Source of the DNA: Escherichia coli
GTDB taxonomy: Bacteria; Pseudomonadota; Gammaproteobacteria; Enterobacterales; Enterobacteriaceae
DNA length: 64,000 bases
Direction: 5' to 3' (one strand)
NCBI RefSeq assembly: GCF_016026235.1
Contig: NZ_CP065613.1
Shown here: positions 20,480-55,830 of the stretch, piece by piece
Layout of the letters: each line of letters begins with the position of its first letter
How positions within the stretch are numbered: position 1 is the first letter of the stretch
Made by a program: the position numbers and the translations under genes
The notes under the pieces: model-generated
What the model was told of the DNA's origin: nothing
Seen by the model: only the letters and a program-made list of their open reading frames with translations
The model's database searches: none

Positions 20480-21364
20480 CTAAACCGGACGAACGGGAAT
20501 AAAAATTTCGCAAACAACATCATTGCCATCCTTTTCTACGAAATCTTCATTGTAATAAAAGCGCTCAATATCGCTGCCGTTCACTCTGGCTAACCCCCTG
20601 GCAGGCAACTCTATCAGATAGATGTTACGCACCCAGTCAGGATAATTTTCCCAGTTTCCTTCATAACGGAAAGAGGCATAAAGTCCTCGGGTCGTTGTCC
20701 ACTCTTTTGGCATGTCAGCATATTCACATACCGTACCAGCAAAAGTTTCAACCGTGAGCAAATCGACCGATTTTGTTGACGGTTCAAACGTGGAGACGAA
20801 ATAGATATCCGTCTTATAATTCTTCATACATCTGGCTAAATGATGACGTCGTAGTTTGACTTCTTCATCCGGTGATTTATTCGACACCTCAATGTCATAT
20901 TTAAATGAGTTGCCAAAAATAGGTGTCTCAGGAAAGTTGACTAATCGACACTCCGTCTTTTGCTGTTGACGTATTAAAAAAGAAGGGAAGATATTTGCGA
21001 GATCCCAATAATCACGGTGGCGGTATTCACGGGGAGAGCAGCCGAATAACTTTTTAAATTCGCGGCTGAATGACTGCTGTGAATCAAAATGCAAAGAGAG
21101 TGCAATATCAAGCATAGATTTCGCGGTGAGCCGGACAAGAATGGCGGCACGGCAAAGCCTTCGTTTGCGAATGTATTCTCCCAAAGGCACATGCATGAAA
21201 TTTCGGAACAGAAGCTGGATGTTGCGTCTGCTGTAGCCAGATTTCTGTGCGATATCTTCGATTGAAATAGGGTGCTCAAGATTGCACTCAATCCACTCCA
21301 GGAGCTGCTGTAGAATCTTCTGCCTGATCATCACATTCTCCATTAATTCTTCGTCATATCGCAC
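20480..21364 (-). CDS. ykgA: AraC/XylS-family transcriptional regulator (294 aa), ykgA-like
   Basis: N-terminal AraC-type double HTH; C-terminal effector domain; synteny next to eaeH. Confidence 0.7.
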   Translation of the reverse strand: MRYDEELMENVMIRQKILQQLLEWIECNLEHPISIEDIAQKSGYSRRNIQLLFRNFMHVPLGEYIRKRRLCRAAILVRLTAKSMLDIALSLHFDSQQSFSREFKKLFGCSPREYRHRDYWDLANIFPSFLIRQQQKTECRLVNFPETPIFGNSFKYDIEVSNKSPDEEVKLRRHHLARCMKNYKTDIYFVSTFEPSTKSVDLLTVETFAGTVCEYADMPKEWTTTRGLYASFRYEGNWENYPDWVRNIYLIELPARGLARVNGSDIERFYYNEDFVEKDGNDVVCEIFIPVRPV

Positions 21365-21577
21365 ATTTTCGTTATGCCCTGGGCCCTAGTGTATCAAAAA
21401 CAGCAAGTCCGAAGGCAAAAGCACTGGTAGCGTCTGCTTCATTGCCCAAAAAATAGAGAGGTTTCAGTCCTACATTATTAATGAATTTTTTGCATAAGTG
21501 ATATCAAAATCCACATACTAATTTGAGGTTACGTTTTAACGTAGACTCATTGTTCATGCCTAATGGAGGGACTGACA

Positions 21578-22447
21578 GTGGAATTTTCCGTATTAAGTAA
21601 CAATCTGAAAATGCCGATGATGGGATTTGGTGTTTTTCAGGTTACCGATAAAAACGTGTGCAAACAGTCAGTGTTGAACGCTATCCGCACGGGGTATCGA
21701 CTCATCGACACTGCAGCGGTATACGGTAATGAAGATGCTGTCGGTGAAGCCGTTCGTGAAGCCATATCCGAAGGTTTATGTACCCGAGAAGAGTTATTTA
21801 TAACGTCTAAATTGTGGGTGCAGGATATGTTGAATCAGGATACGGCAGCAGCAGGTATTGAAGCATCATTAAAAAAATCGGGACTAGAATACTTCGACCT
21901 CTATTTATTGCATCAGGCTATGCGCGATTATTTCAGTGCGTGGCGTGCACTCGAAGATGCCTATGAAGAGGGCAAATTAAAAGCGATTGGGGTTTCCAAT
22001 TTCTATCCTCATGTTCTGGCGAACTTTTGTGAAACGGTAAGAGTTAAACCGATGGTCAACTAGGTCGAGTTGCATCCCTATTTTGCCCAACCAGAGGCGC
22101 TGGCAACCATGAAGTATTATAACGTGCAGCCTGAAGCATGGGCTCCGTTAGGTGGTGGACGACATAAACCCTTTGAAAATAATCTGCTTCAGAGTATTGC
22201 AGATGCCCATCAAAAATCGATTTTTCAAGTCATTCTGCGTTGGAATATTCAACGGGGAGTGGTCGTTATTCCGAAATCGACACATCAACAGCGTATCGAA
22301 GAAAATTTCGCTATCTGGGATTTCTCACTGACAGAGAAAGAAATGGCACAAATTAGTTCGCTTGATTTGGGTTATGTTGGGGAGTCGGTAAAACATTTTA
22401 ATCCTGAATTTGTTCGTGGTTGTCTTGCTGTAAAAATACATGATTGA
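21578..22447 (+). pseudogene. Aldo-keto reductase interrupted by in-frame amber codon (TAG at 22061..22063)
   Basis: Two ORFs in same frame (21563..22063 and 22070..22447) separated only by TAG; paralog at 14667..15518 has Gln (VNQVEV) where this has stop (VN*VEL); GTG 21578 with GGAGG RBS. Confidence 0.7.
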
Positions 22448-22606
22448 TATTAATCATGTATTTTTCCTGAGACGACAAGAATCTTTTAACAGGGGAGTGA
22501 TATTGATCTTCACTCTGTCATATCTCCGGTAATATGGCGTCAGGCTTCATCATCAGAAAGGGGGCCTGACGCCTGAAAAAGTGAACAACAGACAGTGTTC
22601 GGATTA

Positions 22607-23200
22607 TCAATATTCAGTTTTTAACGTTGAACTGGATTCATTACTGCGTTGTTTAAGAATTTCCCGCGCCGAATCTGCCATTATCATGACAGCACCTGCC
22701 AGCATCAGAGTATCTTTCAATACCAAGCGACCAGCACCGGATAAATAAGGGAAACCATGATGAGCGTCACCCAATGCGGGTACCCATGCCTCCGGGGTGG
22801 TGATTAAAAATGAGAGTGTTACCAACGGTGTGGTAAATGCCATCAGCCCTCCCAATAAACCTAACCAGCGATTGACAGGATTAGCCAAAACCAGCAGAGC
22901 AATAATCACCTCCACGACGCCAAGACCGTTGGAAAAACCATAGGTATTATTGGCCGATTGCCATGCCCTTGCTTCTGGTTTGTATTCGCCTTCGTGAGTC
23001 AGATACTGTTTATAGTCTTCCGGGTGTTCATAAAAGAACGACATTAGTGGACTGTTTGCGACGAATGGTGTAATGCTGTCTGCCTCGTAAGGGACAAACT
23101 TTAATAACCCAATCCACATAAAAACAATTGCAATACTCAGACGAATCAATGTCAGGCCAATTTTATCTCCCCGACTTAACAGGTGCAGGTATTTTTCCAT
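22607..23200 (-). CDS. rclC: RclC (YkgB) inner-membrane protein of reactive chlorine resistance operon
   Basis: Start at MEKYLHLLSRGDKIG; hydrophobic; synteny rclABC. Confidence 0.85.
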   Translation of the reverse strand: MEKYLHLLSRGDKIGLTLIRLSIAIVFMWIGLLKFVPYEADSITPFVANSPLMSFFYEHPEDYKQYLTHEGEYKPEARAWQSANNTYGFSNGLGVVEVIIALLVLANPVNRWLGLLGGLMAFTTPLVTLSFLITTPEAWVPALGDAHHGFPYLSGAGRLVLKDTLMLAGAVMIMADSAREILKQRSNESSSTLKTEY

Positions 23201-52546: not shown

Positions 52547-54083
52547 AATAGTCATTAAACCGAATACCTATTTTGATTCTGTCTCGCTGATGTCTATCTC
52601 CACGCGTGCAAATAAACTCGATGGCGTCGAGCAGGCATTTGTGGCGATGGCGACCGAAATGAACAAAGGCGTGCTGAAAAATTTAGGGCTGCTGACGCCG
52701 GAGCTTGAGCAGGCGAAAAACGGCGACCTGATGATTGTCATTAACGGCAAAGCGGGCGCGGACAACGAGCAGTTGCTGGTAGAGATTGAAGAACTGTTCA
52801 ACAGCAAAGCGCAAAGTGGCTCGCACGAGGCGCGTTACGCCACCCTTGCCAGCGCCAAAAAGCATATCCCGGAAAGTAACCTAGCGGTGATTTCGGTCAA
52901 CGGTCTGTTTGCCGCTCGCGAAGCACGTCAGGCGCTGCAAAATGACCTCAACGTGATGCTGTTTTCCGATAACGTCTCGGTTGAAGATGAACTGGCGCTC
53001 AAGCAGCTGGCCCACGAAAAAGGGCTGCTGATGATGGGGCCAGACTGCGGCACGGCGATTATTAACGGCGCGGCGCTCTGTTTTGGTAACGCCGTGCGTC
53101 GCGGCAACATCGGTATTGTTGGCGCATCCGGCACCGGCAGCCAGGAACTGAGCGTCCGTATCCATGAATTTGGCGGCGGCGTTTCACAGCTGATCGGCAC
53201 CGGCGGGCGCGACCTGAGCGAGAAAATCGGCGGCCTGATGATGCTCGATGCCATCGGCATGCTGGAAAACGATCCGCAAACTGAAATCATCGCGCTGATC
53301 TCCAAACCGCCCGCGTCTGCGGTGGCCCGTAAAGTGCTGGAACGTGCGCGCGCCTGCCGCAAGCCGGTGGTGGTCTGCTTCCTCGGTCGTGGCGAAACGC
53401 CGGTGGATGAGCAGGGGCTACAGTTTGCCCGCGGCACCAAAGAGGCGGCGCTGAAAGCGGTGATGCTCTCCGGCGTGAAACAGGAACATCTCGACCTGCA
53501 TACCCTGAACCAACCGTTGATTGCTGATGTGCGTGCGCGCCTGAAACCCCAGCAGAAATACATTCGTGGCCTGTTCTGCGGCGGCACCCTGTGCGACGAA
53601 ACCATGTTCGCGGTGATGGAAAAACAAGGTGATGTTTACAGCAACATCCAGCCCGATCCTGAATTCCGCCTGAAAGATATCAACCGCAGCATCAAACACA
53701 CCTTCCTCGACTTTGGCGATGACGACTTCACCAACGGCAAGCCGCACCCGATGATTGACCCCACCAACCGCATCAGTCGGTTGATCGAAGAAGCGCGCGA
53801 TCCAGAAGTGGCGGTGATCGTGATGGATTTTGTGCTCGGATTTGGATCGCATGAAGATCCGGTTGGTTCCACCATCGATGCGATCAAAGAAGCGAAAGCG
53901 ATCGCCGCAGCCGAAAGTCGTGAGTTGATCATTCTCGCCTATGTGCTGGGCACCGATCTTGATACGCCATCGTTAGAACAACAAAGCCAGATGCTGCTTG
54001 ATGCCGGCGTGATTCTGGCGAGCAGCAGCACCAATACCGGATTGCTGGCGCGTGAATTTATCTGCAAAGGGGAGGAAGCCTGA
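52536..54083 (+). CDS. yahF: YahF, FdrA-like acyl-CoA synthetase (NDP-forming)/succinyl-CoA-ligase-alpha-like protein, 515 aa
   Basis: CoA-binding and ligase-like Gly-rich motifs; overlaps yahE stop. Confidence 0.85.
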   Translation: MSVKIVIKPNTYFDSVSLMSISTRANKLDGVEQAFVAMATEMNKGVLKNLGLLTPELEQAKNGDLMIVINGKAGADNEQLLVEIEELFNSKAQSGSHEARYATLASAKKHIPESNLAVISVNGLFAAREARQALQNDLNVMLFSDNVSVEDELALKQLAHEKGLLMMGPDCGTAIINGAALCFGNAVRRGNIGIVGASGTGSQELSVRIHEFGGGVSQLIGTGGRDLSEKIGGLMMLDAIGMLENDPQTEIIALISKPPASAVARKVLERARACRKPVVVCFLGRGETPVDEQGLQFARGTKEAALKAVMLSGVKQEHLDLHTLNQPLIADVRARLKPQQKYIRGLFCGGTLCDETMFAVMEKQGDVYSNIQPDPEFRLKDINRSIKHTFLDFGDDDFTNGKPHPMIDPTNRISRLIEEARDPEVAVIVMDFVLGFGSHEDPVGSTIDAIKEAKAIAAAESRELIILAYVLGTDLDTPSLEQQSQMLLDAGVILASSSTNTGLLAREFICKGEEA

Positions 54084-55501
54084 TGAGCCCGTCACTGTTT
54101 AGCCAACCGTTGAACGTTATTAACGTCGGTATCGCCATGTTTAGCGATGACCTGAAAAAGCAGCATGTAGAAGTGACTCAACTCGACTGGACGCCGCCGG
54201 GGCAGGGCAATATGCAGGTGGTGCAGGCACTGGACAACATTGCCGATTCGCCGCTGGCAGACAAAATCGCCGCCGCTAACCAGCAGGCGCTGGAGCGCAT
54301 TATTCAGTCGCATCCGGTTTTGATTGGCTTTGATCAGGCGATTAACGTGGTGCCTGGCATGACGCCGAAAACCATTCTTCACGCCGGGCCGCCGATCACC
54401 TGGGAAAAAATGTGCGGCGCAATGAAAGGCGCGGTCACCGGGGCGCTGGTGTTCGAAGGGCTGGCGAAAGATCTCGACGAGGCGGCTGAACTGGCGGCCT
54501 CCGGGGAGATCACCTTCTCGCCGTGCCACGAGCACGACTGCGTGGGTTCGATGGCGGGCGTCACCTCTGCCTCGATGTTTATGCACATCGTGAAAAACAA
54601 AACCTACGGCAACATCGCTTACACCAACATGAGCGAGCAGATGGCGAAGATTTTGCGTATGGGCGCTAACGACCAGAGCGTGATTGACCGCCTGAACTGG
54701 ATGCGCGATGTGCAGGGGCCAATGCTGCGCGACGCGATGAAAATTATCGGCGAGATCGATCTGCGCTTAATGCTGGCGCAGGCGCTGCATATGGGCGATG
54801 AGTGCCATAACCGCAATAACGCCGGGACGACGCTGCTGATTCAGGCGCTGACGCTGGGAATTATTCAGGCGGGCTACTCCGTCGAGCAACAGCGCGAAGT
54901 GTTTGAGTTTGTCGCCAGCAGCGACTACTTCTCCGGCCCGACGTGGATGGCGATGTGTAAAGCGGCGATGGATGCGGCGCACGGCATCGAATACAGCACC
55001 GTCGTTACCACCATGGCGCGTAACGGCGTCGAGTTCGGCCTGCGGGTTAGCGGCCTGCCGGGGCAATGGTTTACCGGCCCGGCGCAGCAGGTGATCGGCC
55101 CGATGTTTGCCGGTTATAAGCCGGAAGATTCGGGGCTGGATATCGGCGACAGCGCCATCACTGAAACCTACGGCATTGGCGGATTTGCCATGGCGACCGC
55201 GCCCGCTATCGTCGCGCTGGTGGGCGGCACGGTGGAAGAAGCTATTGATTTCTCCCGTCAGATGCGCGAAATCACCCTCGGTGAAAACCCCAACGTCACC
55301 ATTCCGCTGCTCGGTTTTATGGGCGTGCCGTCGGCAATCGACATCACCCGCGTGGGTAGCAGCGGCATTCTGCCGGTGATCAACACCGCCATCGCCCATA
55401 AAGATGCGGGCGTCGGCATGATTGGCGCGGGCATTGTGCATCCACCTTTTGCCTGCTTCGAGAAAGCCATTCTTGGCTGGTGCGAACGTTACGGCGTCTG
55501 A
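54083..55501 (+). CDS. yahG: YahG (DUF1116 family), 472 aa
   Basis: Start overlaps yahF stop (ATGA); synteny. Confidence 0.85.
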   Translation: MSPSLFSQPLNVINVGIAMFSDDLKKQHVEVTQLDWTPPGQGNMQVVQALDNIADSPLADKIAAANQQALERIIQSHPVLIGFDQAINVVPGMTPKTILHAGPPITWEKMCGAMKGAVTGALVFEGLAKDLDEAAELAASGEITFSPCHEHDCVGSMAGVTSASMFMHIVKNKTYGNIAYTNMSEQMAKILRMGANDQSVIDRLNWMRDVQGPMLRDAMKIIGEIDLRLMLAQALHMGDECHNRNNAGTTLLIQALTLGIIQAGYSVEQQREVFEFVASSDYFSGPTWMAMCKAAMDAAHGIEYSTVVTTMARNGVEFGLRVSGLPGQWFTGPAQQVIGPMFAGYKPEDSGLDIGDSAITETYGIGGFAMATAPAIVALVGGTVEEAIDFSRQMREITLGENPNVTIPLLGFMGVPSAIDITRVGSSGILPVINTAIAHKDAGVGMIGAGIVHPPFACFEKAILGWCERYGV

Positions 55502-55514
55502 CCTACATGTTCAT

Positions 55515-55785
55515 GCCGGATGCGGCGTGAACGCCTTATCCGGCCTACGAATGGCGCGAGAATCTGTAGGCCTGATAAGCGTAGCGCATCAGGCATTTGT
55601 CACCATTGCCGGATGCGGCGTGAACGCCTTATCCGGCCTACGAGTGGCGCAAGAATTTGTAGGCCTGATAAGCGTAGCGCATCAGGCATTTGTCACCATT
55701 GCCGGATGCGGCGTGAACGCCTTATCCGGCCTACGAATGGCACGAGAATTTGTAGGCCTGATAAGCGTAGCGTATCAGGCAATTT
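55515..55785. repeat. REP/BIME cluster: three tandem ~93-bp units of palindromic REP sequences
   Basis: Unit GCCGGATGCGGCGTGAACGCCTTATCCGGCCTACGAATGG...GCCTGATAAGCGTAGCGCATCAGGCATTTGTCACCATT starting at 55515, 55608, 55701. Confidence 0.85.
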
Positions 55786-55830
55786 GGCGTTGGTCATAAC
55801 CCCATCACCCTCTGTAGCGGACATAACAAC

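Follow-up and report, generated by a model that had tools for sequence, protein, structure and literature searches.

An aldo-keto reductase gene of Escherichia coli interrupted by an amber codon at a Dcm site, a change that has probably occurred in two lineages

The 64-kb stretch of DNA analysed here (the window) is the ecp, fdeC, rcl, ykgEFG, hyx, bet and yah region of E. coli, at ~0.31 Mb on the K-12 map. Between a regulator gene resembling ykgA and the convergent rclC lies a gene for an aldo-keto reductase that has become a pseudogene (Table 1). Translation of 21563-22450 gives a single frame with one internal stop, and the protein reads VRVKPMVN-stop-VELHPYFAQ around the interruption. In RefSeq, the intact orthologue occupies the same place as an 870-bp, 289-aa 'aldo/keto reductase' CDS, running from GTG 21578 to 22447.

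Table 1. Features of the interrupted aldo-keto reductase gene and of its surroundings, in window coordinates
Feature	Position	Strand	Details
Aldo-keto reductase pseudogene	21578..22447	+	289 codons; GTG start; amber codon 162; natural TGA stop at 22445-22447; from translation and the RefSeq CDS of intact orthologues
Amber codon, TAG for CAG	22061..22063	+	Codon 162; the Gln lost here corresponds to human aldose reductase Gln183; window T, intact alleles C
Mutated Dcm site	22060..22064	.	CTAGG in the window, CCAGG in intact alleles; the gene has no other CCWGG; the substitution is at 22061, its inner C, the target of Dcm
Shine-Dalgarno-like GGAGGG	21565..21570	+	Read from sequence; 7 nt 5' of GTG 21578
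A7 tract	21871..21877	+	Intact in the window; site of the A7-to-A6 frameshift allele P0018 in another lineage
S216F, TCT to TTT	22224	+	Lineage-specific; S in L001 and L002; 3' of the stop
ykgA-like AraC/Rob-type regulator	20483..21331	-	Intact; divergent; HTH and GyrI-like domains (PF12833, PF00165, PF06445); RobA-like, 193 bits, below cut-off
Paralogous aldo-keto reductase	14670..15518	-	Intact; 283 aa; 44% identical to the interrupted gene; has Q opposite the stop
LysR gene	11600..12522		Frame change near 12376-12433; truncated 285-aa LysR called in short-read assemblies identical to the window
ipbA invertase	35873..36432	-	Frame change near 36085-36109; lesion also annotated in FDAARGOS_943

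An earlier note on this DNA had described two open reading frames, 21563..22063 and 22070..22447, parted by an in-frame amber codon at 22061-22063. The amber codon is indeed there, as codon 162 of 289 and the sole internal stop of its frame, and the two open reading frames do share one frame; the starts assigned to them, ATG 21563 and TTG 22070, do not stand. The biological start is likely GTG 21578 rather than ATG 21563, because GGAGGG lies 7 nt upstream of the GTG and because the intact orthologues in RefSeq start there. ATG 21563 itself overlaps this Shine-Dalgarno sequence. As for TTG 22070, it is an artefact of the ORF finder, and the codons that precede it (GTC GAG, 22064-22069) belong to the same reading frame. 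Both halves are one gene, with a stop in place of a conserved Gln, because the alignments of the Gln-restored protein to aldo-keto reductases and to the paralog span the stop. Databases already hold the exact 161-aa N-terminal and 112-aa C-terminal fragments as STL99453.1 and STL99450.1, both named 'putative aldo/keto reductase [Escherichia coli]'. For annotation, our reading means that the locus is one pseudogene with an internal stop and not these two small 'aldo/keto reductase' genes. The GTG start does not figure in the earlier note, nor do the Dcm context and the recurrence in a second lineage.

The divergent regulator aligns over 283/283 residues with that of NCTC10444, at 98% identity, and the protein is presumed to regulate the reductase. 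Further away, hyxR is split by IS2, a lesion that, like that of ipbA, is also annotated in FDAARGOS_943, the nearest complete relative. Frameshifts in a recombinase gene and a LysR gene, together with an IS2 insertion, had been listed in the earlier note as signs that accessory functions are decaying here. The ipbA, LysR and hyxR lesions are real features of this lineage, and the neighbourhood fits that suggestion. Because FDAARGOS_943 carries many IS elements, a Shigella origin of the window came into consideration; the E. coli label on the deposited proteins and the intact fdeC of the window speak for E. coli.

The interrupted gene belongs to the aldo-keto reductase superfamily, with homology over the whole (alpha/beta)8 barrel and PF00248 recorded on both fragments. 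When the Gln-restored protein is compared with PDB sequences by phmmer, the best match is 1vp5 (E=1.7e-84), over residues 5-284 and across the stop. That the stop replaces a conserved Gln, as had been proposed, is confirmed from three sides: the three best PDB matches all have 'vnq' at this position, the paralog (the comparison chosen in the earlier note) has Q, and the orthologues have CAG. Similarity to the DkgA/DkgB-type enzymes (2,5-diketo-D-gluconate reductases; PDB 1vp5, 4mhb, 1mzr and 1a80) extends to the fold family, the catalytic tetrad and the cofactor residues, all of which align; the window gene differs in falling under both NCBIfam equivalog cut-offs (233.1 bits vs 425 for DkgA, NF008598, and 163 vs 327 for DkgB, NF008377). 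By these sequence scores, the reductase is DkgA-like but a distinct paralog of DkgA and DkgB. A literature search on ykgQ, the K-12 counterpart discussed below, yielded a single mention in passing and a paper on something else, and nothing about function.

Alignment to human aldose reductase (hAR), with a sequence that agrees with the published residue numbers, defines the part played by the lost residue. The catalytic tetrad D44, Y49, K78 and H112 aligns with hAR D43, Y48, K77 and H110 and lies entirely 5' of the stop. In the pairwise alignment, S140, N141 and Q162 stand opposite hAR Ser159, Asn160 and Gln183, and K233, S234, R239, E242 and N243 align with residues that bind the NADPH phosphate in the human enzyme. 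Crystallographic distance tables show that Gln183 OE1, Ser159 OG and Asn160 ND2 bond the nicotinamide carboxamide, with Gln183 OE1 hydrogen-bonded to nicotinamide N7 (PMC5056380). The window gene encodes the residues of the NADPH-binding site but does not place them in one translated polypeptide: Gln162 is TAG, and the residues that follow it lie past the stop.

A ribosome that starts at GTG 21578 would stop after residue 161. The fragment would keep the catalytic Asp, Tyr, Lys and His and would be without the Gln that contacts the nicotinamide, Trp188 (the stacking residue) and the entire IPKS...R..EN NADPH-binding segment. It would thus form an incomplete (alpha/beta)8 barrel without its C-terminal, cofactor-binding third. 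Because this part of the barrel falls beyond the stop, the product should be inactive, and we infer complete loss of enzyme function. Polarity on the neighbours is not expected, since the next gene, rclC, is convergent, and neither is a functional C-terminal product.

Codon 162 is CAG in every intact orthologue fetched (L001, L002, L011, L020, L022, L023, L024 and L025). The carriers include FDAARGOS_943, O157:H7, NCTC10444, ST131, SCU-172 and three draft haplotypes; the earlier note had pointed to other E. coli genomes for this codon, and close and distant relatives agree on it. The sister isolate GCA_902503985.1 (L022) differs from the window at 4/6870 bases, and within the gene at 22061 only. 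This bears out the proposal of a recent CAG-to-TAG nonsense mutation. Because L022 differs inside the gene at that base alone, the nonsense change is, on this comparison, the latest event, and occurred within a clone. An intact protein with Q162 and F216 also exists (P0032). Its existence indicates that S216F is older than the stop, and S216F as a product of drift after inactivation is ruled out, since the intact Q162/F216 allele is present in the same clone. Among 2950 complete genomes, S216F has no 100% match.

Intact alleles read GTCAACCAGGTCGAG where the window reads GTCAACTAGGTCGAG. The ancestral codons GTC AAC CAG GTC contain the pentamer CCAGG, with its inner C at the first position of codon 162. 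The change at 22061 is a C-to-T transition, and the ancestor and the mutated base are those of a Dcm hotspot, namely a CCWGG sequence struck at its inner C. A simple sequence of events would produce this outcome. Dcm would methylate the inner cytosine of CCAGG, deamination of the 5-methylcytosine would create a T:G mismatch, and the mismatch would be fixed as CTAGG upon failure of Vsr repair. Vsr very-short-patch repair acts on T:G mismatches in the CTWGG/CCWGG context and returns them to C (PMC2715241). We infer methylation at this site in this strain and deamination as the actual event, and we assume that the genome carries dcm and vsr, both of which lie outside the 64-kb window.

The closest parallel is lacI, in which amber hotspots are Dcm sites (PMC12606429). 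The two cases share a CCAGG with an in-frame CAG, an inner C-to-T change that gives an amber CTAGG, an expected suppressibility by Gln insertion, and recurrence at the same base. They differ in origin, the lacI mutations coming from a laboratory mutant collection and the present one from natural isolates, where it is read from sequence only. Coulondre, Miller, Farabaugh and Gilbert reportedly placed the lacI amber hotspots at 5-methylcytosine in 1978.

Lineage-wide substitutions point the same way. Over ~48 kb, the window and FDAARGOS_943 (~99.9% identical) are separated by 31 substitutions and 3 single-base indels. Three of the 31 SNPs (22061, 52040 and 52883) fall on the inner C/G of CCWGG, and all three are transitions, as 5mC-to-T predicts. 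With 0.43% of the window at Dcm inner positions, ~0.13 SNPs are expected there; the enrichment is ~20-fold, with a Poisson P, calculated by hand, of ~3e-4, or ~0.008 when the index site is left out.

The same TAG occurs on a second, ST131-like haplotype (L012/L019), which differs from the window at 20/870 bases (2.3%). One base, the amber base itself, separates L019 from the intact ST131 allele (L024). In the collection searched, 238 index blocks list P0019, the amber fragment of this haplotype, and one carrier is a k141-named metagenome contig. Of all single-base changes in the intact gene, 129 would create a stop (28 of these being transitions), which puts the probability of hitting one site twice by chance at ~0.8-3.6%; with so many routes to a stop, two hits on one base are unlikely unless that base is unusually mutable. 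Because the second TAG haplotype is 2.3% divergent and yet one base from its own intact allele, TAG most likely arose twice, independently, as far as these alleles tell. Recurrence of the kind that marks a Dcm hotspot is found both in the two haplotypes 2.3% apart and in the 3/31 SNPs against 0.13 expected. A hotspot site combined with weak selection on the gene would explain why the same amber allele arose separately in two or more E. coli backgrounds. We conclude, with considerable confidence, that the window carries a genuine and recent loss-of-function allele of a dispensable DkgA-like reductase, most likely produced by 5-methylcytosine deamination, and that the mutation is recurrent.

Several other explanations deserve weight. 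The earlier note had allowed that lesions in this stretch might be systematic sequence errors, and one could imagine that the genome truly reads CAG and that T is a miscall, perhaps related to methylation at the Dcm site. Modification-induced miscalls are documented (PMC11610603). This very pentamer is miscalled in error-prone long-read assemblies: in four such assemblies of other strains, 13/51 indel events fall on CCWGG, which makes up ~1.1% of bases. Each of the four has an indel at the present pentamer, although errors here are partly ascertained, the four having been retrieved as split genes via the C-terminal fragment. Many of their other indels fall in homopolymer runs. The concentration at CCWGG is also an indirect sign that such sites, this one included, are methylated in those strains. 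One of the four comes from the NCTC project, which presumably used PacBio rather than nanopore sequencing. The substitution in the window behaves quite differently from such errors. The N-terminal fragment, with the same T, is found on no fewer than 24 contigs from the 26 index blocks read, among them the NCBI drafts GCA_000805835.1 and GCA_001907535.1 and Logan assemblies of separate sequencing runs. Identity between the window and the carrier loci retrieved is 99.98-100% over 4.3-20.5 kb, with most loci exact, and short-read assemblies from other runs match the window at 100% over 11.6-20.5 kb, with the amber codon and the LysR frameshift included. The second TAG haplotype, present in a metagenome contig, adds to this, as do the survival of 136 intact CCWGG sequences in the window against only 2 CTAGG and the mere 3 indels in ~48 kb relative to a 99.9% relative. 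A miscall is, we believe, exceedingly unlikely, and the suspicion of systematic error is not upheld.

It is also very unlikely that the gene still works, whether by readthrough, with a resident suppressor tRNA, or through 161-aa and 112-aa pieces that reassemble as a split barrel. Gene callers do predict a 112-aa C-terminal ORF from ATG 22112, but a protein begun there would be without residues 162-178, the conserved NQVELHP strand included. Inspection of the sequence 5' of TTG 22070 and ATG 22112 revealed no Shine-Dalgarno-like sequence, and a promoter and terminator scan of 21300-22700 found no intrinsic terminator and nothing above chance, internal promoter-like sites included, which lends no support to a separate downstream transcription unit. 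The frame past the stop is open, with no further stops, as one would want for readthrough; a very recent mutation accounts for this. Suppression by supE or another Gln-inserting amber suppressor would plausibly restore the parental protein, as the earlier note proposed, because the amber codon was formerly one for Gln (all intact alleles have CAG), but ARAGORN finds no tRNA gene in the 64-kb window.

Two further alternatives accept the mutation and question its cause or its history. The change might be a spontaneous C-to-T transition of the ordinary kind, with no part played by methylation and with the Dcm site a coincidence. A plain C-to-T at 22061 would look identical, and C-to-T is the commonest substitution (21/31 SNPs relative to FDAARGOS_943 are C/T differences on the + strand). 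Coincidence would nonetheless have had to pick the sole Dcm inner cytosine from among the 129 nonsense-capable changes, and to alter the same base on a second background, in a lineage whose SNPs are ~20-fold enriched at Dcm inner positions; we therefore regard it as unlikely, though not far-fetched. Alternatively, TAG may have had a single origin and moved between haplotypes in a short recombination or very-short-patch conversion tract. There is room for a patch of less than ~218 bp, the window and L019 being identical from 22007 to 22223 (with differences at 22006 and 22224). However, each amber allele is one base from the intact allele of its own background (L022 for the window, L024 for L019), no other marker was co-transferred, and Vsr repair runs the opposite way, taking T:G in CTWGG to C. 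Since a hotspot makes recurrence the expected outcome, transfer of a single mutation seems quite improbable to us, and we retain two deaminations at one Dcm site as the preferred reading.

How readily E. coli does without this gene is evident from its distribution. Among 5050 matching complete genomes, 2932 have query coverage of at least 80%; the rest, K-12 and BL21(DE3) among them, keep a remnant of ~32%. The gene is deleted in about 40% of complete genomes. In K-12, the remnant is ykgQ (b4631), a 129-bp pseudogene beside the pseudogene ykgA. The connection to ykgQ made in the earlier note is sound: ykgQ sits between ykgA and rclC, gene order is the same as in K-12 (ykgA, ykgQ, rclC, rclB, rclA, rclR), and the window gene is similar in DNA sequence to the remnant. 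The two loci are alike in chromosomal position, in their neighbours (a ykgA-like regulator and rclCBA-rclR) and in gene family, and both genes are non-functional. They differ in that K-12 has a 129-bp fragment left by deletion and a ykgA pseudogene next to IS3, whereas the window has a full-length gene with a one-base lesion and an intact regulator.

Other alleles tell a similar story. P0018 (102 aa, ending in SLKNRG and then a stop, 205 contigs) is the A7-to-A6 frameshift, on an ST131-like haplotype, and the gene of FDAARGOS_943 carries P232S in the conserved IPKS motif. Three of the 31 substitutions relative to FDAARGOS_943 lie in this 870-bp gene, and all are protein-changing (Q162 to stop, S216F, and P232S in the relative), with ~0.56 expected (P ~0.02). 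By these sequence patterns, the gene is dispensable and weakly constrained. The amber allele itself is rare. A search of 5426 complete RefSeq E. coli genomes with 71 bp around TAG gave 0 matches at 100% among the 2948 that carry the site. JGI metagenome contigs, scanned for an exact match to the TAG pattern only, likewise gave 0, a zero that comes without a CAG denominator. The stop truly marks the strains of a small clone.

Repeated loss might mean that inactivation is itself selected for. In favour of adaptive loss, the gene has been lost independently in at least 4 kinds of event (by deletion, by frameshift, and twice by the amber mutation), and the excess of protein-changing substitutions just described would fit. 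Yet both point-type losses lie at known mutational hotspots, the Dcm site and the A7 run, as neutral decay predicts; an intact-length gene is kept in more than half of complete genomes; and there has been no sweep, the amber allele standing at 0/2948 among site-carrying complete genomes. We consider adaptive loss rather improbable. More speculative still is the idea that this single Dcm site acts as a natural, recurrent off-switch, silencing the gene in separate lineages (the ST131-like one included), with loss perhaps selected and with Vsr or recombination occasionally restoring it. An enzyme encoded beside the rcl reactive-chlorine locus might be costly in some hosts. If this long shot were true, the site would be a measurable readout of 5-methylcytosine mutagenesis in the wild.

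Mutation at a Dcm hotspot in a weakly constrained gene, our preferred reading, makes this a commonplace pseudogene, inactivated by a mutational process that is already known, a textbook phenomenon, and the amber allele opens no new mechanistic question. Neither this particular allele nor its recurrence seems to have been described so far. For those who work with long-read assemblies, the CCAGG pentamer is a trap: apparent frameshifts at such sites in error-prone assemblies should be distrusted, and the substitution seen here can be trusted. The locus also shows cleanly, in natural E. coli, what textbooks know from the laboratory: where a Dcm-methylated CCAGG overlies a CAG codon in frame, an amber hotspot can be predicted.

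The three other lesions that the earlier note had reported in this region were all recovered. Aligned with the protein of strain NCTC10444, the LysR-family regulator switches frame near 12376-12433, with frame +2 covering residues 1-278 of that protein and frame +1 covering 260-308. The truncated 285-aa call recurs in assemblies built from short reads with 100% identity to the window, so this frameshift is real. The frameshifted recombinase proved to be the tyrosine invertase ipbA (HbiF/FimX), in which the reading frame is lost near 36085-36109, and the IS2 hit lies in hyxR, which it splits into halves at 35811-35302 and 33971-33684; both lesions are also recorded in the annotation of the 99.9%-identical relative FDAARGOS_943. 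In four deposited assemblies of other E. coli (L013, L015, L016 and L017), rclA, rclC and the reductase are broken up by indels, which cluster at homopolymers and at CCWGG sites (13 of 51 indel events at the latter), and Dcm-site frameshifts in assemblies such as these are probably artefacts.

Features of the window compared with related strains (window coordinates)
Feature	Position	Strand	Basis or remark
LysR-family regulator, frameshifted	11600..12522	+	alignment to NCTC10444 protein
hyxR and ipbA lesions	33684..36432	-	protein alignment and FDAARGOS_943 annotation
yahG, intact 472-aa ORF	54083..55501	+	
Short tandem-like repeat segment, units of about 90 bp	55514..55786		several matching offsets in FDAARGOS_943

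FDAARGOS_943 also differs from the window in several respects. Many insertions of IS600, IS1, IS2 and IS66 are found across its copy of the region, with fdeC and hyxB among the genes interrupted. Its yahG is annotated with an internal stop, corresponding to a C-to-T change at window position 54842 that converts codon 254 from CAG to TAG; the window keeps CAG, and the context here, TCAGG, does not match the canonical Dcm motif. Of the three indels that distinguish the genomes, the one at 55782 falls inside the repeat downstream of yahG, and the copy number of the repeat unit appears to be unequal between the two genomes. Besides the reductase site, two differences affect the inner C/G of Dcm sites, namely 52040 (CCTGG in the window versus CTTGG in FDAARGOS_943) and 52883 (CCTAG versus CCTGG), the latter a synonymous CTG-to-CTA change in fdrA. 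These two sites suggest Dcm-site hypermutability across the window's lineage.

Within the reductase itself, S216F (TCT-to-TTT at 22224) is a rare change, without a match among 2950 complete genomes. It occurs together with intact Gln162 on three DNA haplotypes, namely O157-like, window-like and a third (loci L020, L021, L022 and L023), a distribution that could reflect recurrent mutation, short-patch recombination or selection. The counterpart of residue 216 is small, Ala or Gly in solved homologues and Ala245 in human aldose reductase, and Phe stands in its place here; the F216 enzyme may already be weakened. In FDAARGOS_943, the complete genome nearest to the window, the reductase (L010, 6892-7761), annotated as intact, carries P232S (window position 22271) within the conserved I-P-K-S NADPH-binding motif, and the function of this copy may be impaired as well.
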